From contig JAYENL010000056.1 of assembly GCA_034722055.1 (NCBI GenBank), forward strand, positions 1 to 13,355: a stretch of DNA of 13,355 nucleotides, given 5' to 3'. The position numbers were made by a program, and so were the translations under genes. The notes under the pieces were generated by a model, which saw nothing but the letters and a program-made list of their open reading frames with translations, made no database searches and was not told where the DNA came from. How positions within the stretch are numbered: position 1 is the first letter of the stretch; every line of letters begins with the position of its first letter. This DNA comes from Armatimonadota bacterium (GTDB lineage: Bacteria > Armatimonadota > Zipacnadia > Zipacnadales > UBA5352). Shown here piece by piece: positions 1 to 13,094 of this stretch.

Positions 1-120
1 CGATGCTGGAGCCTCAGACGGCCCCTCCGGACAGCAGACAGCGCATCGCCAGTCGCCACGAGGTGGGGAAAGGTAAGCCGCACGACGACACCACACTGCT
101 GAGCCCTTGCTCAACTCCAT
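1..120 (-). CDS. Possible 5' part of a further operon gene (hypothetical protein, truncated by the window edge)
   Basis: ATG at 120-118 is preceded by GGAGG (131-127). There are 40 open codons to the window edge (MELSKGSAVWCRRAAYLSPPRGDWRCAVCCPEG...), 38 nt after the ATPase stop and on the same strand. No recognisable domain. Confidence 0.35.
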   Translation of the reverse strand, partial: MELSKGSAVWCRRAAYLSPPRGDWRCAVCCPEGPSEAPAS

Positions 121-158
121 CGCAGGCCTCCTGCAGGATGTGAGTAATGCATAGCTGC

Positions 159-1331
159 TTAGGCGGGAACGATGACGTCCATCAGCTCCGCGTCATCGCT
201 CACCTGGGTCTCCTCAGCGAACACCGCCTGCAGGTGGACGTCGCCGGCGGCGTCGAACTTGGGTACGATCATGCCGATGTCCGCGTGCGACTGGCTGGCA
301 ATGCGCTCCGAGAGCTGCGTGAACTGCCGCACGTAGGCCCGGGCTACGTGGCGCACCGTGATGGTGTCGCGGTGAGCCAGCCGCCGGGCGCGCGCGAGCA
401 CGCCCTCGATCATGGCCGGCGTCAGGCAGTCAGCCACGCGCACCTCCACCGACGCATGGCCCTGCCGGCCGCGGGCCAGCACCGGGTCGGCCGTCAGCGC
501 GTCCCGCAGCCACTCGCCGACGCCGTCGGCGGCGTCCCACCGCGCGGTGTGGGCGACGACCACCTGCTCCACCATCGACAGCTCCAGCGGCGCGAACGTG
601 ATGTAGTCGCGCAGCCTGCTCTCATTCATCAGGGCCGGGTCGAACATGTTCGCGGTGTAGTTCGAGCTGGTGAAGAAGGTGGCGGCGATGTCCCCGTCGT
701 CGGCGAGCAGCTTCAGGCCCCGGAGCAGCTCCGAGGTGGTGGCCGCAGCGGTGTCGCCGCAGCCGCTGACCGCGCGCTGCGACCAGCGGCGGCTCTGCAT
801 CAGCGACGCCTCGGCATCCTCGCAGGCGATGAAGACGCGGTAGCCATGCTCCAGAGCCAGCTCCCGGGCCGTGGCGAACACTTCCCGGACGATCGCCTCG
901 GAGCGGCCGTAAAGCGAGTCGCGGAAGTGCCCCGGCGGCAGGTCGAAGTAGGCCAGCCTGCCGTCGCAGCGCTGGTCGATCTGGTTTACGGCCCACTTCA
1001 TCGCGGTGGTCTTGCCCACGCCCGTGGGCCCGGTGGCCACCACGAGGCAGCCGCCCTCCTCTGGCTCAAGCGTCGGCTCGATCACCGTCGTCTCCAGGTC
1101 CGTGCGCAGATCCTCAGACAGCACCACGTCGTGCGGGATGGATGGGATCTGGTATCCCGGGCGGCCCGTCTCGGGGATCGCGCTGCACACCAGCACACCC
1201 ACCGGATGGATCGATGACCCGTAGATTGTCATCCCCTCGCGCGCCCGCTCCGCGACCTCGTGGCTCACGTATACATCTCGCAGACGCTGCACCGGGGAGT
1301 CCGACCAGTTCGCCTTCAGGATTGCAGGCAT
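159..1331 (-). CDS. ARC/Mpa/PAN-like proteasomal-type AAA+ ATPase, divergent; C-terminal part of a split gene (partial OB domain + AAA module)
   Basis: Walker A GPTGVGKT; pore-loop region 'SLYGRSEAIVREVFATARE'; Walker-B position 'FIACEDAE'; sensor-1/SRH 'SSNY..MFDPALMNESRL'. The C-terminal 'VEVRVADCLTPAMIEGVLARARRLA...TVRHV' resembles the ARC/Mpa 'SGAMI.NVVDRAK' lid region. Start placed at ATG 1331 (AAGGAG 8 nt upstream); GTG 1340 is the alternative. Confidence 0.85.
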   Translation of the reverse strand: MPAILKANWSDSPVQRLRDVYVSHEVAERAREGMTIYGSSIHPVGVLVCSAIPETGRPGYQIPSIPHDVVLSEDLRTDLETTVIEPTLEPEEGGCLVVATGPTGVGKTTAMKWAVNQIDQRCDGRLAYFDLPPGHFRDSLYGRSEAIVREVFATARELALEHGYRVFIACEDAEASLMQSRRWSQRAVSGCGDTAAATTSELLRGLKLLADDGDIAATFFTSSNYTANMFDPALMNESRLRDYITFAPLELSMVEQVVVAHTARWDAADGVGEWLRDALTADPVLARGRQGHASVEVRVADCLTPAMIEGVLARARRLAHRDTITVRHVARAYVRQFTQLSERIASQSHADIGMIVPKFDAAGDVHLQAVFAEETQVSDDAELMDVIVPA

Positions 1332-1343
1332 CGTCGCCACTCC

Positions 1344-1883
1344 TTAGCTGAGACTGGGCTGATCCGACGTGACTGGCTCTCCGGCGTCCTTCGGCCCGGC
1401 GCCCACGGAGGCGACGCGCCCCTCCTCGGCGCCGAGTATCAGGCGGAACAGATCCAGGCGCTCGTCCGGCCAGTAGACCTCGATGATGAGCGCGCCCGAG
1501 GGGTCGAGCGAGGCCAGGGCCGGGCCCCGGGCCTCGAGCTCTTCAGGCGTGAGCACGGGGTCCTCCCCATCGCTCGGCGGGATGACCGATACCCGCTCGA
1601 ACTCCCCCCGGCCCCGAGAGATCACGAAGAAGCCGCCGCCGAGACCCATCATCACCGGCAGCAGCCGGTTGGGGCCCTGCTCCAGGGCCTCAATGAGCGC
1701 CTGGCGCTCCTCGACCTCCTCTATCAGCGCCTGGCGAGCCGCGCGTGCCTGGTCGGCCAGCAGGCGCGCGTCGCGAGGCCACTCGCACACCGCCACCAGC
1801 GCCTGCCAGGCCTGCTCCACGTCTTCGGCATCGGCGGTCACGAAGCGCTCGATCGCTTCGTTGGCGGACATCCGCTCACTCAC
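1344..1883 (-). CDS. Coiled-coil + OB-fold protein resembling the N-domain of ARC/Mpa/PAN proteasomal ATPases
   Basis: The GTG start overlaps the JAB stop (GTGA), with AAGGAG upstream. A heptad helix 'ARQALIEEVEERQALIEALEQGP' ends in Pro and is followed by beta strands 'FFVISRGRGEFERVSVIPP...ASLDPSGALIIEV', the CC-Pro-OB layout of ARC/PAN. Same reading frame as the downstream ATPase. Confidence 0.7.
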   Translation of the reverse strand: MSERMSANEAIERFVTADAEDVEQAWQALVAVCEWPRDARLLADQARAARQALIEEVEERQALIEALEQGPNRLLPVMMGLGGGFFVISRGRGEFERVSVIPPSDGEDPVLTPEELEARGPALASLDPSGALIIEVYWPDERLDLFRLILGAEEGRVASVGAGPKDAGEPVTSDQPSLS

Positions 1884-2932
1884 GATGTCACACTCTCCTT
1901 GGGGACGGGATCGGCACTGGTGGCGGCTTCCCGGACGGGCGGAAGGTGCTCGTCGCCCACCACCCAGAAGCCGCCCTCGGCGGACACCACGCCCGGCCGG
2001 CTGTAGCCGAAGGCGGTGAGGAGGACTCGCTCGTCGCGCGTCGCCGGCAGCGAGGCCACCCACGACGCCTGATGGGCGTGCGGCAGGCCCTGGCGAAGCT
2101 GCCGGAGGTCCACCGGCGAGAGATCCGCGGGACCGCGCACCGGCCCGGACTCGGCATCGTCATGCTGCTCCTCCGGCAACGCCGCGACCGGATGGCTGTG
2201 GATGATGGCGGCGGTGGGCGATTGCGCCGTCGTCTCCTGGGCGTCGGCGGAGACGTGCACCGAGCCGCTCGTGCTTTCGCCCACGAGCGGGGTGAAGTCA
2301 TCGTAGATGACGATGGGCAGGTGCTTGGTGCCCACCGGCGTGAGCGCGAGCTGACCGTGCAGCACGCCCATGCGCTCGGTGTCAACGTCGGCGCCGACGA
2401 AGTCAAGCACGCGCTCCAGCACCGTGGCGGCGAAGACGCGAACGAACAGCTCCGCCGGCTGTCCAAGGCAGACCCCTGCATTGAGATCGATCTCGACCAC
2501 CGGCGGGATCCGGATGCTGTGCCGCCACGGGGAGGGCTCCTCGCCCAGCAGCCGGATCCCGCTCGGTCCGCTCGGCTCATGGTCAGCCTCGTCGCAGATG
2601 ACCAGGCGGTAGTCCGCGATGTCGTCGGCCGGGCGGTCGTGGACCCCCACGACCTCCGCCCACACATCGTTGATCGCCGCCCGGACCAGCGCGCAGTCCG
2701 GGTCGATGACGCCCAGCAGCGACCCGTCGTCGAGGAAGGCGCCGAAGGCGATGGCCTGATCGCTGCCCGCCACCGACGCCGGCCTGACCTGCGCCTGCAG
2801 CTCGCCGGACCCATCCGCCGAGAGAGCCGCCACCAGCAGGAGCCGCTCCACGATGGGCGTGAACGTGTAGCTGGGCAGGAAGCCCGCGAGCTGCTCGCTA
2901 TCCGTGCGGCTGGTGAACTCGATCTGAACCAT
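1880..2932 (-). CDS. JAB/MPN+ (JAMM) metallo-isopeptidase with N-terminal extension (candidate deubiquitinase / Ubl maturase)
   Basis: JAMM motif: catalytic E in 'TERMGVLHG', then 'IIHSHP' and 'LSPVD'. Start at ATG 2932 with GAGGTG 6 nt upstream; the ORF track uses GTG 2941. Confidence 0.85.
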   Translation of the reverse strand: MVQIEFTSRTDSEQLAGFLPSYTFTPIVERLLLVAALSADGSGELQAQVRPASVAGSDQAIAFGAFLDDGSLLGVIDPDCALVRAAINDVWAEVVGVHDRPADDIADYRLVICDEADHEPSGPSGIRLLGEEPSPWRHSIRIPPVVEIDLNAGVCLGQPAELFVRVFAATVLERVLDFVGADVDTERMGVLHGQLALTPVGTKHLPIVIYDDFTPLVGESTSGSVHVSADAQETTAQSPTAAIIHSHPVAALPEEQHDDAESGPVRGPADLSPVDLRQLRQGLPHAHQASWVASLPATRDERVLLTAFGYSRPGVVSAEGGFWVVGDEHLPPVREAATSADPVPKESVTS

Positions 2933-2955
2933 CGCTGACACCTCTGTTGCGGCTG

Positions 2956-2988
2956 CTCCGGCCGACCGCGCATCGCGGCCGGCCGGAG
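2956..2988 (-). terminator. 15-bp RNA stem-loop between the Ubl and JAB genes (mRNA-stabilising or attenuating hairpin)
   Basis: Minus-strand RNA CUCCGGCCGGCCGCG-AUG-CGCGGUCGGCCGGAG. The only non-Watson-Crick pair is G-U on the transcribed strand. There is no U-tract, so this is not a classical intrinsic terminator. Confidence 0.5.
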
Positions 2989-2993
2989 TGCGC

Positions 2994-3275
2994 TCAGTTC
3001 CCCGTCAAGTCCTGCCTGAGGGTGACGGTGGCCTCGCCCGTCTGCAGGTTCTGGCTGATGGTGCGAGATGGGTCGAGGCGCTGCCCGTCGTGGTAGAGCG
3101 CGCTGCCATCCTGTGAGTCCAGGGCCAGGGCGGCCAGCTCCTTGGCCAGCTCGCCGGTAGGCTTGTCGCCATCCACCGCTGCGCGCAGCAGGGTCGCTCC
3201 CGAGCTGTCGAGTACGGTCAGCTCGATCTCGCCCTCCGCCACCTCAGGCGTCCTCAGCAGCTCCTGTGTGCTCAT
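2994..3275 (-). CDS. Ubiquitin-like beta-grasp protein (EsaB/YukD-like Ubl modifier)
   Basis: 93 aa with a ubiquitin-like pattern: 'IELTVLDSSG', helix 'PTGELAKELAALAL', 'LYHDGQRLDPSRTISQ' (cf. ubiquitin LIFAGKQLEDGRTLSD), final strand 'VTLRQDLTG-N'. ATGA overlap with the upstream gene, GGAGGTGA RBS, and E1/E2/JAB context. Confidence 0.85.
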   Translation of the reverse strand: MSTQELLRTPEVAEGEIELTVLDSSGATLLRAAVDGDKPTGELAKELAALALDSQDGSALYHDGQRLDPSRTISQNLQTGEATVTLRQDLTGN

Positions 3276-3754
3276 CCCGGTTCACCTCCCTTCGGCCAGC
3301 CCGGGCGCGCCGTCGCGGCCTCGACTGCCCGGTCTCCACGCACATCGATGTAGGCTCGCGCCAGCTCAGCATCACAGCACAGGGCCGACGCCCCCTCCAG
3401 GACCACGCGGCCCAGCGAGGTCAGCAGGTCCAGGAGCTGAGACGCGTCGGCAGCGTCGCCGCCCACCTGCAGGCAGATGGCGTCGTCCTCGCGCGCCGCC
3501 CAGGCCGCGAACTCGATCCCGCGGACCTGCCCCTGCACGGCCTGCAGGAAGGCCTCGGTCGCCGCCCAGCCCTCGGGGACGGGCTCCGCGGGCAGCAGAT
3601 GGAGCTGGGCGCGCAGCCGGCCGCCCTCCCGCACGGCCGTGCACCTGGCCAGCAGCGCAGGCCGCAGCGCCAGCCGCCCCGCCGCGATGCCGCCGCCGGA
3701 GTCCCGGACATCGGCCACGCCGGCGCGAGACAGATGGGCCACAAGCTCAGTCAT
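3272..3754 (-). CDS. Hypothetical protein within the Ubl conjugation operon
   Basis: 160 aa, overlapping both neighbours (8 nt with E2, 4 nt with Ubl), with a GGAGGG RBS. No catalytic motif recognised. Confidence 0.75.
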   Translation of the reverse strand: MTELVAHLSRAGVADVRDSGGGIAAGRLALRPALLARCTAVREGGRLRAQLHLLPAEPVPEGWAATEAFLQAVQGQVRGIEFAAWAAREDDAICLQVGGDAADASQLLDLLTSLGRVVLEGASALCCDAELARAYIDVRGDRAVEAATARPGWPKGGEPG

Positions 3755-4379
3755 GCTGAGCGCCTCCCTCCACCCCTGAGGTCAGAATCCGAACGCCGCA
3801 CGCCGCGGGCGGACCAAGCGGCAGGTCGAAGCCGTCCAGCGCGCCCTCGCGCAGCCAGCGCGCCACCCCCAGGGCCAGGGCGTCCGCGTCGGACAGGCTG
3901 TAGCTGCCCTCCTCGAAGCGCAACATCCGCACCAGGCTCATCGCGATGTCCGCCAGGTCGGTCTGATCGATCCGGAAATCATCCATCAGGCACACCCCGC
4001 CGGGCAAGCACGGGACGATGTGCGGGTGGAGCACTGGCGGATATGGTCCGGGCAGAATGAGCAGCCGCGGCGTGCCGTCCGGGGAGGCCAGCAGCTCCAC
4101 GCCCACGTTGATGACAGTGTTGACGGGACTGACCGCGTCCGGCGATTCCGGCCGCCAGAAGCGCGCCCGCAGACCACCCAGCAGGCTCCCAGCCTCCAAC
4201 GCGTCATCCGGCGGCGGCTCGTCGATGCCCAGGTAGCGCGCGGCCAGCGACAGGATGAACTTGGCGTCCTCGGAGCCCGCGCCGCGCATGACGCGGCGCA
4301 GCATCGCCGCCGGAAGCTGCTCGAGCGAGGCCGCCTGGCGGTCGAGATACGCGCGGCGACACTCCGCGTCAGAGCGCAC
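3747..4379 (-). CDS. Ubiquitin-conjugating enzyme E2 (UBC fold)
   Basis: 'PPVLHPHIVPCLPGGVCL' matches the UBC HPN(I)...G.VCL active-site motif, including the catalytic Cys. It is followed by helix 'LADIAMSLVRML' and 'ALALGVARWL'. Start at GTG 4379 (GGAGGTGA upstream); the ORF track uses GTG 4388. Confidence 0.85.
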   Translation of the reverse strand: MRSDAECRRAYLDRQAASLEQLPAAMLRRVMRGAGSEDAKFILSLAARYLGIDEPPPDDALEAGSLLGGLRARFWRPESPDAVSPVNTVINVGVELLASPDGTPRLLILPGPYPPVLHPHIVPCLPGGVCLMDDFRIDQTDLADIAMSLVRMLRFEEGSYSLSDADALALGVARWLREGALDGFDLPLGPPAACGVRILTSGVEGGAQHD

Positions 4380-5550
4380 GGGGCTCACCTCCCACGGTCA
4401 GCGGCGCCACGTGAACGAGGCCCTCCTCGGCCGCATCGCCGCACAGCTCAACCGACAGGCGCCTGCCGCCGTCCACCAGCTCCAGCACCGGCCACCAGGG
4501 CCAGCCGAGCGCCCGCGGCGACAGGTCCCGGACGGGCGCCAGCGCGACCGGCCCGCCCGCAGACACAATCTCACCGGCGACGATGTCGTCACTGCCGCAT
4601 GCCGCACACGACATCCAGCGCCCCAGGAGCATATGCGGCACCTCCGTGATCGCCTCGCAGGCGCTGCAGAACAGCACCCGCGCCGCCGGCCGGGGCAGGA
4701 TGACCTCCGCGTCGGTGCTCGTGTTGAGCGCCGCCTGTATCTCGCCGAAGCTGTCCTCCGACGACAGCGGCAGGCGAACGGACTCGTCGGGCTGGGGCGG
4801 CGGATCGGCCGAGCATACCGGGCAGTCCGCGCGCCGCTCCACCCGCGACCGCTCCGTCTCGCCCGCGGGATCGAGGTGGACCAGCTCCGCCGCCGCCGGC
4901 TCTCGGGCCGCCAGCTCCCCGGCGCTCGCCAGGGCGACGGCCGCCGCCAGGGCCGCGATGTGCGGCTGCGAGTTAGTGGGCGGCGGCTGGGCACGGTTGG
5001 CGACGGTCGCCTCCAGGCCGCGGAGGAAGCAGCCGGTACGCGGCTGCTCCGGATCGCGGCCGAGACACGCATAACAGGCGGCGGCATCGCCCGGGGGCGA
5101 CACGAACACCTCGGCTGCCGCCGGGCCCAGGCCCGTCGCCACGAACGGGAGCCCGTGGCGCGCCGCGACGGCCGCCAGGTAGCTCTGCGTTGCGATCGAA
5201 TCGGTGCAGGCCAGCAGCACGCCGCCCTCCGACGCAAGCCGGCGCCAGTATCCGTCGCCGACCGCCTCGGCCTCCGCAACGATCGCCAGCTCGGCGTCCA
5301 GCCACGGGAAACGCTCTGCGCGGTAGCGATGGACCGACTCGGCCTTATGCAGGCCGGGCTCAGACAGAGGAGGAATGATGTCCTGACCCGGCTCGGCCAC
5401 GTCGGGGTCGATGACATCCAGGCGCGACCGCGGGGCCAGCGCGGCCACGAAGCCACCGGACAGTCCCGCGCCGACCATGCAGGCGTGGATTGCGACGGCC
5501 TGGTCGAGGGTGGGGGTGACGGATTGGCGTGAGATGACGCGCACGGTCAC
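4369..5550 (-). CDS. ThiF/MoeB/E1-family Ubl-activating enzyme with C-terminal Zn-ribbon extension
   Basis: Rossmann GxGxxG 'VGAGLSG', 'IDPD', 'GLHKAE', 'ACTDS'; Zn pair CYAC...CPVC; candidate catalytic Cys in 'RTGC'; extra CSAC...CAAC in the C-terminal ~130 aa. GTG 5550 overlaps the upstream stop (GTGA). Confidence 0.9.
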   Translation of the reverse strand: MTVRVISRQSVTPTLDQAVAIHACMVGAGLSGGFVAALAPRSRLDVIDPDVAEPGQDIIPPLSEPGLHKAESVHRYRAERFPWLDAELAIVAEAEAVGDGYWRRLASEGGVLLACTDSIATQSYLAAVAARHGLPFVATGLGPAAAEVFVSPPGDAAACYACLGRDPEQPRTGCFLRGLEATVANRAQPPPTNSQPHIAALAAAVALASAGELAAREPAAAELVHLDPAGETERSRVERRADCPVCSADPPPQPDESVRLPLSSEDSFGEIQAALNTSTDAEVILPRPAARVLFCSACEAITEVPHMLLGRWMSCAACGSDDIVAGEIVSAGGPVALAPVRDLSPRALGWPWWPVLELVDGGRRLSVELCGDAAEEGLVHVAPLTVGGEPRAL

Positions 5551-6023
5551 GCGGGATCGCCCCCGTCCTCGAACCCGGCCCCGCACGCGAAGCAGCGGCG
5601 CGCGTCCGCACCTCCGCGCGCGCAGAAGGCGCTATCGGTGAGCATCCCGCAGCCGCAGATCAGGCAGGTGTCGCCGCTGGGGATGGGCTGGTGGCAGACC
5701 GGACACGTGCAGGCATCGGGCGCAGGGGCGGGACGCGGGCCGTGGGAAAGGAGGCGAGCGACGAAGGTGGTTCCATCAATGGACAGCGGCGCTGCAGCGA
5801 GGTCAACCAGCCCCCCGAGCACGGGGCGGCCGCGGCATCGCGCCCTGGCGCTGGCCGACGGGGCCAGGATCGCCCAGACCCTTGAGCCGCGAGGGGGGAG
5901 GACGAGCAGTAGACCGTCCCGTGCCGAAGCCGGGCCATGGGGGCCCAGCCACAGCGGCTCGCGGTCCAGCAGAGCCTCCGCGACGGTCGAACTGCGATGC
6001 AGGACCTGGAGGGCAACGCTCAT
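5547..6023 (-). CDS. Degenerate FHA-like domain + prokaryotic RING-type Zn finger (candidate E3 ligase)
   Basis: The C-terminal C-x2-C-x12-C-x-C-x4-D-x3-C-x9-C-x2-C (CPVCHQPIPSGDTCLICGCGMLTDSAFC...CFAC) resembles Prok-RING family 1. The N-terminal beta-rich region 'VWAIL...RCRGRPVLGGLVDL...LSIDG' resembles the C-terminal half of an FHA fold. Start at ATG 6023 (GGGAGGGGG 9 nt upstream). Confidence 0.7.
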   Translation of the reverse strand: MSVALQVLHRSSTVAEALLDREPLWLGPHGPASARDGLLLVLPPRGSRVWAILAPSASARARCRGRPVLGGLVDLAAAPLSIDGTTFVARLLSHGPRPAPAPDACTCPVCHQPIPSGDTCLICGCGMLTDSAFCARGGADARRCFACGAGFEDGGDPA

Positions 6024-6073
6024 CTCGTCCAGCCCCCTCCCGGCGGTAGCATCCATGACCGATGGACGGTTGC

Positions 6074-6175: not shown

Positions 6176-6204
6176 TTGACGGGCAGGTGCTGTCCGGCTA
6201 CAAT
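6176..6204 (+). promoter_or_regulatory. sigma70-type promoter for the SorC-family regulator
   Basis: TTGACG (6176-6181), 17-nt spacer, TACAAT (6199-6204), upstream of the GGAGG RBS and ATG 6277. Confidence 0.75.
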
Positions 6205-6276
6205 ACGGCCGGCAACCTCGAGCAATGGCGAGGACGAACCGCGGCACACGACGGCTGGGGGGCTGGAGGCACAAGC

Positions 6277-7662
6277 ATGGCTGAACAGCACCACGACATC
6301 GGGGAAGAACAGCGGAACAACGTCGGGCCAGCTACACGGGACGAGCAGGCCCACTTCTTGGGCTACGGGCCAGAGTTGGACACGCGCCAGGCGGAGGAGC
6401 TGGCAGAGGAGTATCATGCGGCGTGGCTGGCTGCGCTGGGGCTGCCAGTTGATGAGATAGCAGCGCGGATGGACGTCTCACGGGCCACGGTCTACCGGCT
6501 GCTCAAGTCCGCCGAGAAGGATCATGGTCTGCTGGATACCCGGCCGCGGGTGGCGCTGCCGGTCGGGGAGGGCGCGGAGCTTCTGTGGCAGCGGGTCGAG
6601 CGCACCGATCTGGGGCGGCAGGTGAAGACACGGCTCGACCAGCGCTATGGAAGCGATACCGCGCCGCGGGAGGTGTTGGTGGCACCCACGGCCAGCCTGA
6701 CCGAGACCGAGCAGGGCGAGCGCAGGAACATACAGGTCGTGCGGCGGGTGGCGCGTGTTGGCGCGCGACGCCTGATGCGGGGGCTGCTGCAGGAGGAAAG
6801 CCCCGTCCGAATCTGCGGCATCAACTGGGGCTTTCACTGCTGGCGCCTCAGTCACTCCCTCCCCGGCGAGCTGTTTGCGCGCCTATCGATGGAGCGGGCC
6901 CGGGACCTGCGCTTCTTCCCGCTGGTGGGCAGCATAGGCCTGATCGACGAGGATCGGGAGCACTACATCGCGGACACCTCCGCCAACTCGAACGCCGAGC
7001 GGTGCGTCGAGAACCTCAGCCGCTACGGGCTGGAGCCGGGCGCACATGCCCAGCGCGACACCGAGTCCCCCATCCCACCGGCGATCGAGCTGACCCAGCC
7101 CTGTGTCATCCCCTTTCCGGTGGACAACAGAGACCACGGGACGTACCTGGAGCAGGTGTGGCGCTACATCGCCTCGGACGTCTCGGTGCAGGCGGTCTTC
7201 GGCGAGGAATGGGCGCTGGCCCAGCTCCACGGTACCGATATGCCGGCACACGACCCTGCTCACGGCCCCCTGCTGCATCGAGCCGACACCCTCATCACTG
7301 GATTGAGCACTGTCCGTGACTCGCGCGCTGTCCGCATCGGCGCTATCGCCGAGCAGTTGGCCGAGCAGGCACGGGAGGCGAGGGCGGTGGGGGAGCTCTC
7401 GGCGCATTACTTCTGTGAAGCGGCGGAGGAGCCCGCGCGTCGCGAGGCGCTTCGCCGGGTCAATCGCTGGGTTGTGGCGCCCACCATCTCCGACTACCAG
7501 CAGTGTACGATACGCGCCCGGCAGACCGGCAGGGGGCTCGGGACTGTGCTGCTGGCCAGCTTCAGTCGCAAGACCGCCGCGGTGGACGCAGCAATCAGCC
7601 GTGGCGCTGCCAACGTCCTGGTGTGCGACGAGGAGCTGGCGAAATCACTGCTGGAGCTGTAG
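6277..7662 (+). CDS. SorC/CggR/LsrR-family sugar-phosphate-binding transcriptional regulator
   Basis: N-terminal HTH 'AAWLAALGLPVDEIAARMDVSRATVYRLLKSA'; sugar-binding domain motifs 'GINWG', 'FPLVGSIG', 'ADTLITG', 'AVGELSAHYF' and 'KTAAVDAAISRGAANVLVCDEELAKSLL'. ATG 6277 follows GGAGG. Confidence 0.85.
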   Translation: MAEQHHDIGEEQRNNVGPATRDEQAHFLGYGPELDTRQAEELAEEYHAAWLAALGLPVDEIAARMDVSRATVYRLLKSAEKDHGLLDTRPRVALPVGEGAELLWQRVERTDLGRQVKTRLDQRYGSDTAPREVLVAPTASLTETEQGERRNIQVVRRVARVGARRLMRGLLQEESPVRICGINWGFHCWRLSHSLPGELFARLSMERARDLRFFPLVGSIGLIDEDREHYIADTSANSNAERCVENLSRYGLEPGAHAQRDTESPIPPAIELTQPCVIPFPVDNRDHGTYLEQVWRYIASDVSVQAVFGEEWALAQLHGTDMPAHDPAHGPLLHRADTLITGLSTVRDSRAVRIGAIAEQLAEQAREARAVGELSAHYFCEAAEEPARREALRRVNRWVVAPTISDYQQCTIRARQTGRGLGTVLLASFSRKTAAVDAAISRGAANVLVCDEELAKSLLEL

Positions 7663-7821: not shown

Positions 7822-8823
7822 TTACGCGAAGTGATCCCAGCCGCCGCGCGGAAGGTCGATGCTCTCGCCGCACTCGTCGAGGGCTGCCACGCCCTCGCCC
7901 TCCTCCACGCGGCCCACCACGCTCAGCCCCACCTCCACGACCGCGGGGAGCTTGCGCAGGGCCTCGACGGCTCCGGCGCCGAGCGCCATCAGCAGCTCGA
8001 AGTCCTCCCCGCCCGCCAGCGCCCAGCGCCGCGCGTCGCACCCCAGCTCCCTGGCAAGCGCCACGCACCCCGTGACTGCCGGGACGCGCTCGGCCTCGAT
8101 GACGGCGCGCACTCCGCTGCGCCGGGCGATGTGCCCGGCGTCCTGCACCAGCCCGTCGCTGATGTCGATCGCTGCGGCGGCCAGCCCCGAGGCGGCGATG
8201 GCTCGGCCGGCCGCGATGCGTGGCTCCGGATGCGCGAAGCGCCGCCGGATCTCGGCCAGCTCCTCGCACTCGAGGGCGTCAGCTCCCAGCGCCTGAAGGG
8301 CCGCGATGGCCGCTGCCGGCCCGCCCAAGGCCCCCGTGACTGCCAGCACCTGGCCGGGCCGTGCGCCGTCGCGGGTGAGCTGCTGGCCGGGAGGGACCAG
8401 GCCCAGCGCCATGATGTCCACCAGCAGGCGCTCGGAGGCGATCACATCCCCTCCGGTCAGGGCGCCTCCGGCGCTCTCTGCGGCATCGGCGATTCCCCGC
8501 AGCAGCGCCTCGGCGCGCTCGACCGGCCACTCGGGCGGCAGGCCGACGGTGCAGAACACCGAGGCCGGGGCCGCGCCCATCGCCGCCAGGTCGCTAAGCG
8601 CCCCGGAGGCCGCGCGCCAGCCGACCCGCTCCGCCGAGAGCCACTCGAGCCGGAAGTGCCGATCCTCCAGCATGGCGTCGGTGGTCACCGCCACCAGCTC
8701 CGGCCCTCCCAGGTCCAGCAGCGCCGCGTCGTCGCCGATGCCCACCACGGTCCTGGGATCGCCGCTGGCCATGCTGGCGATGCGGTCGATGAACCCGAAC
8801 TCCCCGATGTCGCGAAGACGCAT
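7822..8823 (-). CDS. thiL: Thiamine-monophosphate kinase
   Basis: 'MRLRDIGEFGFIDRI', 'GIGDDAA', 'TTDAMLEDRHF', 'LSDLAAMGA', 'GGD', 'IDISDGL', 'GGEDFEL', C-terminal 'GWDHF'. GGAGG RBS before ATG 8823. Confidence 0.96.
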   Translation of the reverse strand: MRLRDIGEFGFIDRIASMASGDPRTVVGIGDDAALLDLGGPELVAVTTDAMLEDRHFRLEWLSAERVGWRAASGALSDLAAMGAAPASVFCTVGLPPEWPVERAEALLRGIADAAESAGGALTGGDVIASERLLVDIMALGLVPPGQQLTRDGARPGQVLAVTGALGGPAAAIAALQALGADALECEELAEIRRRFAHPEPRIAAGRAIAASGLAAAAIDISDGLVQDAGHIARRSGVRAVIEAERVPAVTGCVALARELGCDARRWALAGGEDFELLMALGAGAVEALRKLPAVVEVGLSVVGRVEEGEGVAALDECGESIDLPRGGWDHFA

Positions 8824-9011
8824 CTCAGTGCCTCCCCGAGCGTCCGTGCTCACGTCTCGGAGTTCGCTGAGGGAGTGCCAACTCCCTGCGCGCCGGCGCG
8901 GGAGGAGAGTCCGGTACGAGCGTGGGGAAGGAGCGGACCGGCGTCGAATGGAAGTCAGGAGGTGATGGCCAGCACAGGGCGCGTACATGGCACTATCGGA
9001 GCGTGACTGAC

Positions 9012-10487
9012 ATGGTCGCCGGGGCGTGGGGGCGGCTCCTAGGAGATGTACGCGGTGGCCCCCGTTGGGGGCTTGGGATGCTCGTGACGGCGGCGGCCGT
9101 AGTGTCGTGTCTCACTGCCACCTTGGCGGCAGCGGAGCTGGAGATCGACCCCGAGCATCCCTACTTCTTCCGAGATGGGGACAGGCACGTCTATCTCCTC
9201 GGGGCCTCTGACGACCAGGCTCTCTTCCTGTGGGAGAATGACAAAGGCTTCGACTGGCGGGAATACCTGGAGACGCTTCACGCGCACGGTTTCAACTACG
9301 TAAGGCAGTATGTCACCGCGTGGAACTCCGTGGACACTCCCCGGGAGTATCCAGCGCAGTTCTCAAGCCCGCTATGGGTCTTCGCTCGGCCGGGGCCAGG
9401 GACGGCTCGCGACGGCAAGCCCAAGTTTAATTTGACGCGCTTCAATGGGGAGTACTTCGGCCAGCGCATCAGACCATTCCTTGCCTGCGCCCGCGAGCTG
9501 GGTATCTACGTAGAGCTGACTCTCTTCGCCCGCACCGACCGGGGGACCTGGCCTGGCTGTCTGTACAGCGACCGCAACAATGTCAATGAGCTGGGGCTGC
9601 AGCCACGCCAGCCCGAATCCGACCGGGCCCTGCAGAACGAGCCACTGCTGGCGATCCAGGAGGCCTACGTGTCCAGGGTCCTGGCAGAGACCGCCGAGTT
9701 CGGAAACGTCATATATGAGATCGCTAACGAGACCGGCGGGCACAAGTGGGTCACGCACTTCGTGGACTTCATCCACAACCACCCGGAGCATCCGTCCCAC
9801 CTTGTGTCGGCGGGAGAGCAGATGACGGCCTACGATCCAGTCGCGGGCCCCAACGACATTGTCATCAAGCACCGAGGATGGGGACGGGGAGGCGGCCTCT
9901 ACGCCACGGATGCCCACGTCAAGACCCATCACGACGTCCTCCTGAAGTTCCGAACGGGCAAGCCCATCATCCACAACGAGTTCTTTCTCTACGCCAACCA
10001 GAGCACCGATGACCCGAACTTCGTCCGCAAGATGATGTGGGGCGATTTCACAGCCGCCGGCCACTGCAACTTCTCCGACTTCGCGCACTTCAGGGGAACC
10101 GGCCGGACCATGGACGAGGGCGATCCCGCTCAGCCGCCGCCCCGGGAGATCCTGGAGGGTGGCCGGCACCTCCGCTCCTTCATCGATCGCGTGCCCTTCT
10201 GGCAGATGCGGCCCGCCGACGAGTGTGTCGCGAAGCCGGGTCCGCAGATGCATGCTATGGCGCTGGCCGCCGCCGGGCGATGCTACGTGGTCTACCTGCT
10301 GGGTGGGCCGGTGAGGGCGCTGAGGATGACGGTTCCGGGCGGCGGGTACATCGCGCGATGGTACGACCCCAAGACGGGGCGATTGGGGGAAGCGATCCCG
10401 GTCAGAGCGCGCAACGGGGAGCTGACCCTCTCTGTCCCCGGCTTCGAGCAGGACATCGTGCTGTGGATGCACAGGCCGGGGCCTTAG
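9012..10487 (+). CDS. Secreted clan GH-A-like TIM-barrel glycoside hydrolase (DUF4038/GH140-like) with C-terminal putative collagen-binding-type beta domain
   Basis: Signal peptide ending '...TATLAAA'; 'HGFNYVR', 'ARELGIYVEL', acid/base-like 'NVIYEIANE', nucleophile-like 'PIIHNE', C-terminal 'ARWYDPKTG...DIVL'. Start uncertain (9012 or 9078). Confidence 0.75.
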   Translation: MVAGAWGRLLGDVRGGPRWGLGMLVTAAAVVSCLTATLAAAELEIDPEHPYFFRDGDRHVYLLGASDDQALFLWENDKGFDWREYLETLHAHGFNYVRQYVTAWNSVDTPREYPAQFSSPLWVFARPGPGTARDGKPKFNLTRFNGEYFGQRIRPFLACARELGIYVELTLFARTDRGTWPGCLYSDRNNVNELGLQPRQPESDRALQNEPLLAIQEAYVSRVLAETAEFGNVIYEIANETGGHKWVTHFVDFIHNHPEHPSHLVSAGEQMTAYDPVAGPNDIVIKHRGWGRGGGLYATDAHVKTHHDVLLKFRTGKPIIHNEFFLYANQSTDDPNFVRKMMWGDFTAAGHCNFSDFAHFRGTGRTMDEGDPAQPPPREILEGGRHLRSFIDRVPFWQMRPADECVAKPGPQMHAMALAAAGRCYVVYLLGGPVRALRMTVPGGGYIARWYDPKTGRLGEAIPVRARNGELTLSVPGFEQDIVLWMHRPGP

Positions 10488-10720
10488 CCTATGCATTAGC
10501 CACAATGTGTTCGGAGCCAAAGGCTGCAAGCTAACTTCGCGGCAAGTCAGATGGAGGGGCCGTCGCGCAGCGAAGCAAGCGATGCGATGGTGTGAGCGCA
10601 TGAGCACCGTCGCAGGTTCCACCCCGGCCCATGTCGTTCCTGACGGCGAACGGCAGGTGGCCGGTGCGTCGCGGGTGAAACCGTCTCGCCACGCCCAGAC
10701 CAGCCTGACAGGAGGAACTC

Positions 10721-11857
10721 ATGCACAGGCCCATGCTGGCGTTGCTGGCGATGGTGGCGTGCGGAAGCTGTGCCGCCATGCCCCTGCTGGTGAATGTCCG
10801 ACACGATCTGGTGCGGGAGGGCATCTTCGAGCGCAACCCGGCCGGGGACGGGGAGACCGATGACAGTCCCGCCATCCAGGCGGCCATCGACCACGTCGCA
10901 GAGCGCGGCGGTGGCATGGTCTTCGTCCCGCCTGGCACCTACCGCATCGCCGGGGTGGCGATCCCCGCGGGGGTGACGCTCAGCGGCGCCGGCCCGGAGC
11001 GGACCATCTTCCGCGCGCTGCACAGCTCTCCGATGCTGCTGCCCACCGGCGGGACGCTCCGGGGCTTCACGGCCTACGGGACGCCCACCGAGGAGGTCTC
11101 CGGCGCCGGCTGGGAGATCACCACCGAGCCTGGTAGCGGCGGCACCGCCACCTGTTCCCACATCATCATGGTCCGCGACGCGGAGGCCGTGCGCATCCAG
11201 AACGTGCACGTCATGGAGTCCCGCTACGACTGCCTCTATGTGCGGGGCTCACGCGGGCTGCGCGTGGTCAACTGCCGCTTTGACCGCGCGGGGAGAAACA
11301 TCGTCTCGATGGTGGGCAATGACGAGGACTTCGTCTTCGAGGCCTGCCACTTCGGCTCGCTCTGGCGCCTGTATCACTTCGACATCGAGCCCGCCGGCGG
11401 CCGCTGGGTCCGCGACGGCCTCTTCCTGGGCTGCACCTTCGACGGCACGCGCGCCGGCGAGCGCGGCTCCGACACCTGGGGCGCCATGCTCATCCTCACC
11501 GCCCACGAGGAGCTGGAGAGCCGCGACATCACCATCGCCGGCTGCGTCTTCCACGACATCAGCCTCCGCGTCAACGGCGTCTTCCCCGGCGTCCGGCTGC
11601 TGGGCAACGTGCTCGACGGCCACGGACCGTTCTTTCTGCGCGTGGAGACCAACCCCGTGGGCGAGCTGCGCGACGCGGCGATCAGGGACAACACCTTTCT
11701 CGACGGCGACGAGCCCGCCCAGCGACTGCGCAGCGGCGTGACCTTCACCGGCAGCACGGTCTTTGCGGGGAACACCCCGGCGCCCTTCAACGACGTGCCG
11801 CTCGACGAGCCCGCCACGCTTCAGGAGGCGGCGGAGGACAGGGCCGGGGATCAGTAG
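10721..11857 (+). CDS. Secreted right-handed parallel beta-helix protein (pectate lyase-3/GH28-like N-terminus)
   Basis: Signal peptide; 'AGDGETDDSPAIQAAID...GGGMVFVPPGTYRI'; repeated beta-helix turns ('VVNCRF', 'FEACHF', 'IAGCVF', 'IRDNTF'); AGGAGG RBS. Confidence 0.88.
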   Translation: MHRPMLALLAMVACGSCAAMPLLVNVRHDLVREGIFERNPAGDGETDDSPAIQAAIDHVAERGGGMVFVPPGTYRIAGVAIPAGVTLSGAGPERTIFRALHSSPMLLPTGGTLRGFTAYGTPTEEVSGAGWEITTEPGSGGTATCSHIIMVRDAEAVRIQNVHVMESRYDCLYVRGSRGLRVVNCRFDRAGRNIVSMVGNDEDFVFEACHFGSLWRLYHFDIEPAGGRWVRDGLFLGCTFDGTRAGERGSDTWGAMLILTAHEELESRDITIAGCVFHDISLRVNGVFPGVRLLGNVLDGHGPFFLRVETNPVGELRDAAIRDNTFLDGDEPAQRLRSGVTFTGSTVFAGNTPAPFNDVPLDEPATLQEAAEDRAGDQ

Positions 11858-11876
11858 CAAGCGGCGTCGTTAAACG

Positions 11877-11907
11877 GCGCAGGGCCCGCCGGGAGCGGGC
11901 CCTGCGC
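11877..11907 (+). terminator. Perfect 13-bp hairpin after the beta-helix gene (probable terminator)
   Basis: GCGCAGGGCCCGC-cggga-GCGGGCCCTGCGC, 19 nt after the stop. The U-tract is weak. Confidence 0.6.
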
Positions 11908-12366
11908 ACTGCATTGATGAGGAGCGACACGAGACGAACTGTACAGTAGGTCTGATGCGAGCGAATTCTCAGTCTGCCATCCGTCGGGGCTTCGGCCCAG
12001 GCCCCTGGTCGGCCAATGACCGTCGTCCCGGTAAGTGTCTGAAGCGAGGGCGGAGTGTGTGCCTGTCACGTGAAGGAGGGAGGGTTGGAACCTTCGCGTG
12101 GATCACACAGCCGTCGCTATCGCTACAGGCCTTCCTCCGCCCTCGCATACTATTCGACGTAGTAGCCTCATGAAAGGTTCAACCTGAAAGCAAAAAACTT
12201 GAGCCATTCCGACCACGGCCCTCAGGGCCTTTCCTGCGCCCCTTCATCCCCAGCGACGGGCCAGTGGGCCGCTCCCCCGCGTCACAAGCGATCTCCCTGG
12301 GAGGGCTGCGGAGGCCGGGCGTCCACCGACATAGGCAAAGGATTCCAAAAGTGACGAAATCTTGGT

Positions 12367-12395
12367 TTGACGCAGGCCCATGGTTCTGCTATAAG
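12367..12395 (+). promoter_or_regulatory. sigma70-type promoter with extended -10
   Basis: TTGACG (12367-12372), 17-nt spacer, TATAAG (12390-12395) preceded by TGn; about 40 nt before the prepilin-like gene. Confidence 0.6.
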
Positions 12396-12437
12396 TTATG
12401 GGGCTATGAACTGATTCTCTATCCACGGAGGTGCACG

Positions 12438-13094
12438 ATGCGCAAGGGCTTTACGCTGATCGAGCTGTTAGTCGTCATCGCGATCATCGCGATACTGGCA
12501 GCCATTCTCTTCCCGGTCTTCGCGCGAGCGCGCGAGAAGGCCAAGCAGACGAGCTGTCTCTCCAACGTCAAGCAGCTCATGACCGCGTGCAGGATGTACG
12601 TCGGTGACTATGACGACAACTTCTGCTGGGCGTACCATCAGCCCGGCGCGGTCGAGACGCGCTACTGGTTCAACAAGTGGCTGCCCTATGTGAAGAACAA
12701 GGAGGTGTTCGTCTGCCCCTCCTCGCCCAATCTCAGGTATCGGGGGTATGGCAACTACGGCTACAACATCCGAGGACTGCCGGGCCAGAATACCTCAACC
12801 GGCTATGACGGCTTCGGCTACTACTACGCCGACCATGACACCTGGAACAACGGGGTTGTAAACCTGTCGGACGTGGAGTTTCCTGCCGAGGCCATCGTCC
12901 TGGGTGACCAAAGCGCCAGGGACTACAGCGGGGATGGTCTGTATCTGATCACCTACAGCGTCCTGAACTTCCTGCCCGACGTGCATAACGGTGGCGGTAA
13001 CTACGGCTTCGTTGACGGTCACGCCAAGTGGCTGAAGCCCGAGACTGTGCACGGCGACCCCATCTGCCTGGCCACCCGCAAGGGCATGCCCTGA
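12438..13094 (+). CDS. Prepilin-type N-terminal cleavage/methylation protein with C-terminal H-X9-DG motif (DUF1559-like)
   Basis: '[47 protein letters not shown]', 'VFVCPS', '[16 protein letters not shown]'. GGAGGTG RBS before ATG 12438. Confidence 0.95.

Follow-up and report, generated by a model that had tools for sequence, protein, structure and literature searches.

A proteasomal-type ATPase encoded by two adjacent genes at the end of a predicted ubiquitin-like operon in Armatimonadota

The DNA analyzed here is a stretch of 13,355 nucleotides from an Armatimonadota bacterium (contig JAYENL010000056.1 of assembly GCA_034722055.1), which we call the window; its own genome is denoted G000. 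On the minus strand two adjacent genes together encode the parts of an ATPase resembling the proteasomal ATPases ARC and Mpa. They close an operon of FHA/RING, E1, E2, ubiquitin-like protein (Ubl) and JAB genes on the same strand. The stop codon lying between the two genes is almost certainly an inherited gene boundary that arose by gene fission. Comparison of sequences suggests, with rather better than an even chance, that this is a split ATPase derived from ARC, the halves of which likely rejoin by β-strand complementation and form a ring, the task of which would be to unfold or extract Ubl-tagged proteins. The features of the two genes are listed below, with the predicted local distance difference test score (pLDDT) of AlphaFold2 models where these apply.

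1344..1883, minus strand: upstream gene, 179 residues, comprising a helical hairpin and coiled coil, the first OB fold (OB1), the first strand of the second (OB2) and an acidic tail
1677..1865, minus strand: predicted helical region of residues 7-69, with the coiled coil and a GPN hinge at its end; pLDDT about 70-85; aligns to the ARC coiled coil
1470..1676, minus strand: predicted OB1 (residues 70-138), modelled with five strands and one helix at pLDDT 55-66; profile alignment to ARC OB1
1404..1427, minus strand: orphan OB2 β1 strand EEGRVASV, residues 153-160; aligns with three fused relatives and with ARC OB2 β1
1347..1403, minus strand: acidic, poorly conserved tail, residues 161-179; not in the fused relatives; conservation 0.35, pLDDT <50
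1329..1346, minus strand: junction; TAA 1346-1344 within TAAGGAG 1346-1340, spacer of 8 nucleotides, ATG 1331-1329
159..1331, minus strand: downstream (motor) gene, 390 residues, comprising OB2 β2-β5, an AAA ATPase and an ARC-type β-grasp insertion; Pfam AAA E 2.6e-6
1185..1319, minus strand: predicted remainder of OB2, four strands and one helix, residues 5-49; pLDDT 49-65; ARC profile alignment
1008..1031, minus strand: Walker A, GPTGVGKT; Lys invariant in 10/10 rows
816..833, minus strand: atypical Walker B, hhhhED and not hhhhDE; ED in 9/10 rows, DD in 1/10
438..482, minus strand: β-hairpin of the ARC/Mpa-type β-grasp insertion, residues 284-298; aligned to ARC

The division into two genes is conserved. 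The open reading frames (ORFs) are separate in all six loci read (the window, L001 to L004 and L039), where the two genes are adjacent and never apart, and a Shine-Dalgarno (SD)-like sequence lies ahead of every motor gene. The intergenic distance ranges from -13 to about +80 nucleotides, and the upstream gene ends in TAA, TGA or TAG depending on the locus. The ORFs are in frame in four of the six loci and in different frames in the other two (L001 and L002); in L001, which is 84% identical to the window, the genes overlap by 13 nucleotides in different frames. A search for relatives of the downstream protein admitting lengths of 214-683 residues returned five of 384-389 residues (44-84% identity), the sixth being a fragment of 293 residues. 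When the 575-residue read-through sequence with X at the stop was compared with 1.84 billion proteins using phmmer there were 33 matches; 13 of these fall under E 1e-20, eight covering the N-terminal part only and five the C-terminal part only. The named relatives are from Armatimonadota. Among 79 genomes of the class, five carry a match to the upstream-gene profile; the ORF is short in four of them, and in G401 the frame stays open over a long stretch. Selection on both halves is purifying, the ratio of nonsynonymous to synonymous substitution against L001 being 0.25 and 0.19, compared with 0.21 for the adjoining JAB gene. The first-pass annotation of this DNA had raised the case of a decaying gene, with close homologues all fused and selection relaxed here; instead all six loci read are split and the selection is purifying.

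At the junction the minus strand reads AGC TAA GGA GTG GCG ACG ATG. The description in the first-pass annotation is confirmed. ORF 1883-1344 (179 residues) and ORF 1331-159 (390 residues) have a common frame with a single stop between them, the stop lies within TAAGGAG, 8 nucleotides ahead of the ATG, and the product with X placed at the stop is 574 residues long. The SD sequence pairs with the 3′ end of 16S ribosomal RNA located on contig C184 of G000. Two features that had been thought special are not supported as such. A crude scan across G000 found 30 junctions with the stop inside an SD-like word, eight of them in frame; the overlap of TAA and SD is ordinary and not above chance expectation. 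Nor is the shared frame supported as distinctive; it is absent from two of the six loci.

A fused control is found in the same cluster. Genome G401 has the same cluster and gene order with a single ATPase of 539 residues, P0020. The upstream-gene profile aligns to the P0020 N-terminus (hhalign 93.2%, E 2.9e-7), which scores 30.7 bits against that profile compared with a maximum of 5.1 for shuffled sequences, while the C-terminal part scores 116 bits against the motor profile. Three fused relatives, P0020, P0024 and P0032, which belong to a divergent ARC-like subfamily, were aligned and have about 26% identity to the split form. A profile search with the upstream gene for longer proteins found none among 8000 candidates, which is a weak result as P0020 was missed too, and none of five pattern matches for P0020 in viral contigs was confirmed.

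The fused relatives place the cut. EEGRVASV of the window aligns to a strand of all three, in which a short turn follows and then a strand matching ILKANW of the motor; the window has about 26 extra residues at the cut. Once aligned by profile with ARCs of Armatimonadota (14 sequences; 99.4% over 414 columns), the strands flanking the cut are the first and second of OB2, and the Pfam OB-C match in the ARC L010 begins at the OB2 β1 strand. Because EEGRVASV and ILKANW align to OB2 strands one and two, the cut is, by alignment, in the turn that joins β1 to β2 of OB2. The earlier placing of the break inside OB2 is thereby borne out, with the correction that LFRLILG, then taken for the upstream OB2 strand, is linker just before it, the strand being EEGRVASV. 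Column conservation over 12 upstream genes is 0.62 for the orphan strand, similar to the 0.65 of OB1, and drops to 0.35 in the tail, which is absent from the fused relatives and is taken as an addition made after the cut.

In a tree of 36 AAA modules, from which the fragment P0007 was left out and for which 8 of the 14 ARC rows were used, the ten split rows fall on one side of a branch (95/99). The three fused rows are sister to them (together 100/99) and apart from ARC. The tree is consistent with a single fission, and since ARC and the sister group are all fused the direction would be from fused to split. The gene fission offered as one possibility in the first-pass annotation is thus upheld by the six split loci, the fused orthologue of G401 and the tree.

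The anatomy of the two proteins taken together is that of ARC. By profile alignment through the fused relatives two tandem OB folds would be present as in ARC. The N-domains of the fused trio align to ARC-like N-domains (95.2%, E 2.5e-8), and the motor half aligns to ARC from OB2 through the β-grasp hairpin (hhalign 98.9%, E 1.8e-17). The hairpin is followed by DCLTP, with DLVSG as the ARC counterpart, and the coiled coil corresponds to the helix of residues 36-69 in the upstream-gene model. With the motor model (pLDDT 70.6) the top Foldseek matches are to Mpa (E 2.9e-13), and VIA-align likewise puts Mpa first, superimposing the model on 7px9 with Z 22.2, a root-mean-square deviation of 3.5 and 296 residues aligned. 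The order coiled coil, OB, OB, AAA and the ARC/Mpa ancestry put forward in the first-pass annotation are thus supported by hhalign, Foldseek and the profile alignments. When the profile of the motor half was searched against the PDB, Pch2, Rpt and p97 instead came out at the top, with no Mpa among the best 60. The NCBIfam model TIGR03689 scores 16.5 bits compared with a cut-off of 504.75. The protein is ARC-like by anatomy, yet it is not an ARC member by membership tests.

In the motor the Walker A Lys, the aromatic pore loop, the sensor-1 Asn and the second arginine of the finger are invariant or nearly so over ten rows. The Walker B motif, ED in the split form, is DE in ARC and NE in all three fused relatives. 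No GQYL or HbYX end is present in 11 split and three fused C-termini. This is a weak discriminator because 27 of the 27 listed Armatimonadota ARCs (L008-L034) lack GQYL as well, having basic tails such as RRNII or SGVI. Many other ARC-like ATPases are of 500-580 residues and mostly without a Pfam OB match (P0023-P0039). In P0038 (894 residues) both proteasomal OB domains stand ahead of a pair of AAA domains, an ARC collar on a Cdc48-like double ring.

The proteasome was sought in the five carrier genomes (G000, G417, G285, G362 and G401, 83-98% complete), with G092 as positive control. A 20S β subunit, a Pup ligase (PF03136) and a canonical ARC were detected in none of the five, while all three were found in the control. 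The first-pass annotation had noted neither this lack of a 20S proteasome nor the ubiquitin-like operon. Each carrier has one match to PF00227, which is HslV by reading. ClpP is present in the four carrier genomes examined for it. A search with PF10584 gave no match and is uninformative, the control being likewise negative. A second AAA match in G401 (C331) was considered as an ARC and rejected, as it is Cdc48-like by reading. At L056 1-2918 of G401 a Cdc48-like AAA gene stands beside a MoxR-like AAA gene, by reading.

The remainder of the operon and the adjoining regulator are as follows.

1880..2941, minus strand: JAB/JAMM-like peptidase, E...HSH...SxxD; motif invariant in 4/4 rows
2994..3275, minus strand: predicted Ubl, 93 residues, with the end LTGN; putative fold, with a weak Ub-RnfH match (E 0.13) in the G401 orthologue
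3272..3754, minus strand: 160-residue protein with a candidate CesT/YbjN-like chaperone fold; ESM Atlas 0.88-0.89, below the 0.9 line; conserved in the cluster
3747..4388, minus strand: predicted E2-like protein, HPH...GGVCL, Cys133; motif invariant in 3/3 rows, Cys kept in G401
4369..5586, minus strand: E1/ThiF-family enzyme; Cys186 conserved, zinc-binding extension at the C-terminus; over the Pfam ThiF cut-off (E 5e-8)
5547..6056, minus strand: FHA-like and RING-like protein (predicted E3); G401 orthologue matches Prok-RING_1 (E 1.5e-7) and FHA at the cut-off; pairwise E 5e-6
6187..7662, plus strand: divergent SorC/DeoR-type regulator adjoining the operon; Pfam HTH and Sugar-bind

Gene order is alike in the window, L002, L039 and G401, and the six genes upstream of the ATPase align pairwise with those of G401 (E 2e-4 to 5e-36). 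The GTG start of the upstream ATPase gene overlaps the TGA of the JAB gene, and the regulator has a counterpart at the same place in G285 (69% identical). The Ubl ends in LTGN in all four orthologues, i.e. a one-residue cap behind a single Gly. The protein of 3747..4388 we take to be an E2 by its UBC motif; it has no Pfam or PDB match. The JAB orthologues score below the cut-off for Prok-JAB (E 0.015 and 0.0073), and about 165 conserved residues at the N-terminus of the JAB protein have no Pfam match. The window FHA/RING-like protein alone likewise has none. We note that the RING-like domain of the split lineage has Asp where G401 has a His ligand.

On the 3′ side of the ATPase in L002, L003 and L039 there follow a short remnant of a ClpC-like gene and then a second set of Ubl-like, E2-like, JAB and E1 genes. 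The ClpC-like gene of these three loci (e.g. L039 6159-7307) is cut to about 380 residues; its Walker A is degenerate, and Pfam AAA models do not match it. By contrast G401 has an intact ClpA/C-like ATPase after the ARC-like gene (L046 9336-11897), with two AAA domains and an IGF loop. In G000 the second half of the cluster is found on contig C129 (5713-9636, minus strand) as genes for an E2-like protein of 394 residues, a JAB of 355 residues, an E1 of 455 residues and a product of 104 residues. They lie behind a multi-copy repeat that is found at the contig end and differs from those in the window. Neither the ClpC-like gene nor the second Ubl gene was found in G000. Among the second Ubl-like proteins the C-terminus is YAGGGGV, YAGGGGE, YTGGAGE or HVGGA (a Ubl-like gene of the G401 cluster is at L046 14503-14832). 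The G401 cluster closes (L046 3204-4020) with a 157-residue gene and a 76-residue protein ending in WRVG, an E2-like/Ubl-like pair by look, with no Pfam matches. At 1-150 of the window, 3′ of the ATPase gene, the contig ends in two short repeat elements that occur at at least about 50 places in G000. Beyond the regulator (7822-13094) lie a ThiL-like AIRS protein, a DUF6298/apiosidase-like protein, a β-helix protein and a prepilin-type DUF1559 protein.

How might such an ATPase function? We propose that the upstream protein lends its last strand (residues 153-160) and completes the OB2 barrel of the motor. The resulting tight two-chain subunit would assemble into a 6+6 ring like that of Mpa. 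In Mpa the coiled coil is the site of tag binding and the pore is fed by the OB rings, according to the excerpted text of PMC8142254; here the coiled coils would catch Ubl-tagged substrates and the OB rings would feed them to the pore. By analogy with Bil and with the Rpn11 of Caldiarchaeum, the JAB peptidase may trim the final Asn of the Ubl to expose Gly, and recycle the tag. The motor would thread the substrate and either release it unfolded or hand it to ClpP, a 20S particle taking no part. As both a 20S and a gate-opening tail are lacking, its role would be that of an unfoldase or segregase, perhaps working ahead of ClpP. The split may have been tolerated rather than being adaptive. As a more tentative extension, one that we would hold only loosely, the substrate-catching collar could be a separate protein completing the OB barrel in trans as the switch of a proteasome-free "ubiquitin-segregase". 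This would have two parallel E1-E2-JAB-Ubl cascades, an FHA-RING E3 sensing phosphopeptides and a motor working with an ED Walker B.

Several observations weigh against the proposed mechanism. The split upstream genes alone match the ARC N-domains weakly (E 0.093; 59.7%, E 8.9e-5). Two fold searches with the upstream model (overall pLDDT 61) gave no OB match, Foldseek having none under E 0.001 and VIA a best Z of 7.6 that covers helices only; the OB parts of both models are of low confidence (pLDDT 49-66). Pfam OB models have no match in the window proteins, a PDB sequence search with the upstream-gene profile returned two designed helical proteins only, and ESM Atlas gave nothing above 0.77 for this gene. 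The VIA-align Z scores with Mpa (21.5-22.4) are close to that with Rpt (21.2). Given the ED Walker B, and the retention of only the second of the two finger arginines of ARC, ATP hydrolysis is not assured. The branches of the tree are long and its root insecure. The neighbouring ClpC-like gene has degenerated in the split lineage and was not found in G000, and since the carrier genomes are 83-98% complete the missing proteasome is not proven. Lastly the E2 and Ubl are predicted from motifs and context.

A role in anti-phage defence is possible though doubtful, and it would be compatible with the proposed assembly. The cluster would tag phage proteins as Bil does, with the split ATPase dismantling tagged virion parts. 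The patchy spread over five of the 79 genomes fits this, and an antiviral role is demonstrated or predicted for related operon families in the excerpts of PMC10557695 and PMC11601596. However, no PADLOC model matches the seven non-ATPase operon proteins, the matches of the ATPase are generic, and the neighbours are metabolic genes, not defence genes.

An unlikely arrangement is that of a detachable receptor ring, as suggested in the first-pass annotation, in which a hexamer of the upstream coiled-coil/OB1 protein docks reversibly on the motor ring and so switches substrate uptake. Such a ring could draw on a conserved split with a start for each gene, on a complete OB1 in the upstream protein, and on the promotion of Mpa hexamer assembly by OB domains given in the excerpted PMC8142254. 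But the cut passes through a β-barrel and the orphan strand is kept, so that release would leave the OB2 of the motor one strand short, and the two genes never occur apart in the six loci. A cut through the β-barrel fits better with a tight two-chain subunit than with a detachable ring.

It is improbable that the ATPase is slow or dead, retaining the binding of nucleotide and of Ubl-tagged proteins as a scaffold or sensor but threading nothing any more. A Walker B of ED in nine of ten split rows and of NE in three of three fused relatives, the loss of one finger arginine, the lack of a gate-opening tail and the decay of the neighbouring ClpC-like gene in the same lineage would all be explained. 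Set against these are the purifying selection and the near invariance of the Walker A Lys, the aromatic pore loop, the sensor-1 Asn and the second arginine.

That the TAA is read through by programme, giving a 574-residue ARC-like protein, can be given very little credence. The common frame of the window and of four loci in six would permit it, but an in-frame count of this kind has a chance of about 0.10 (binomial). The frames differ in L001 and L002, three different stop codons are used, and the spacers differ by up to about 90 nucleotides. No suppressor tRNA is present in the ARAGORN list for G000. A sequencing error or a recent nonsense mutation in a decaying gene can be dismissed with near certainty, given five other loci split at the same place, a stretch of 26 residues absent from the fused forms that has grown at the cut, and purifying selection on both halves. 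The stop was checked on assembled contigs of four public runs: contigs of X1 (106-3251, depth 50, no differences) and X2 (106-5048, depth 20, seven differences, all elsewhere) span it with TAA unchanged and no sense codon, while no piece across the stop was among the matches listed for X3 and X4; note that X1 and X2 may be the source samples of the assembly. The conserved split, differing frames, individual SD sequences and purifying selection therefore lead us to reject error, recent nonsense mutation and readthrough, all of which the first-pass annotation had allowed.

Full-text literature searches brought up no paper on a split proteasomal ATPase or on this cluster, although the link of RING operons to an ARC-like ATPase may already be in print (Burroughs 2011/2012 and supplements, outside the search). 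What is new is that the split runs through the OB barrel and that the same cluster offers a fused control. This constitutes a natural experiment. As the cluster exists with both fused and split motors, one can ask what the coiled-coil/OB collar adds to a proteasomal-type ATPase, and also whether completion of an OB barrel in trans is possible. The cluster also connects a eukaryote-like ubiquitin cascade containing a RING with a proteasomal-type motor, in bacteria where no proteasome was detected. This is relevant to the question of how tagging came to be joined to unfolding before the 26S proteasome.

A number of known systems may be compared with this one. The Bil and Bub operons share the proposed logic, the excerpted texts (PMC10557695, PMC11601596) predicting that the Ubl precursor is trimmed by JAB and then passed to E1 and E2, and no operon ATPase is mentioned in those excerpts. 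As excerpted, Bil encodes no E3, whereas a RING gene is present here, and the Bil-type PADLOC models match none of the E1, E2, Ubl and JAB. Bub, by the same partial texts, needs DUF6527 (BubE) and Tyr/Ser catalysis; here the E2-like protein has Cys, and DUF6527 has no match in the cluster proteins scanned. In the ubiquitin operon of Caldiarchaeum an Rpn11-like JAB processes the ubiquitin precursor alongside an E1/E2/RING set, as is proposed here. It differs in being archaeal and in having a Gly-Gly motif, with no ARC-like ATPase gene described in the excerpted PMC6043591.

The prokaryotic RING-type ubiquitin operons (Pfam Prok-RING_1) have E1, E2, RING, Ubl and JAB together with a sporadic distribution, according to the excerpt of PMC1779556, as is predicted here; E1-E2-RING-Ubl-JAB operons are known as predicted families from the parts seen of that paper and of PMC10557695. 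In our cluster an E1 (ThiF over cut-off), a RING (Prok-RING_1 over cut-off in the G401 orthologue) and the JAMM motif occur together, and the E2 Cys and the Ubl C-terminal motifs are conserved, with no Pfam or PDB match over cut-off for these two proteins. The present operon differs in its split ATPase and in the second set of E1, E2-like, JAB and Ubl genes that comes after it.

ARC/Mpa (Mpa PDB 7PX9, 7PXC and 5KWA; TIGR03689; Armatimonadota ARCs L008-L034) has the same order of coiled coil, two OB folds, AAA and β-grasp, the Mpa layout being taken from the excerpted PMC8142254. Its domains are on one chain, whereas here there are two polypeptides cut inside OB2. The present protein differs further in its ED Walker B, single finger arginine, lack of GQYL and TIGR03689 score far below the cut-off, and in a setting of E1-E2-RING-Ubl-JAB with no 20S or Pup ligase detected. 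The closest comparison is with the fused P0020, P0024 and P0032 of the sister group, which share motifs with the split form over both halves. P0020 lies in the same cluster, and differs from the split form in being one chain of 539 residues with an NE Walker B and an intact ClpA/C-like gene next to it.

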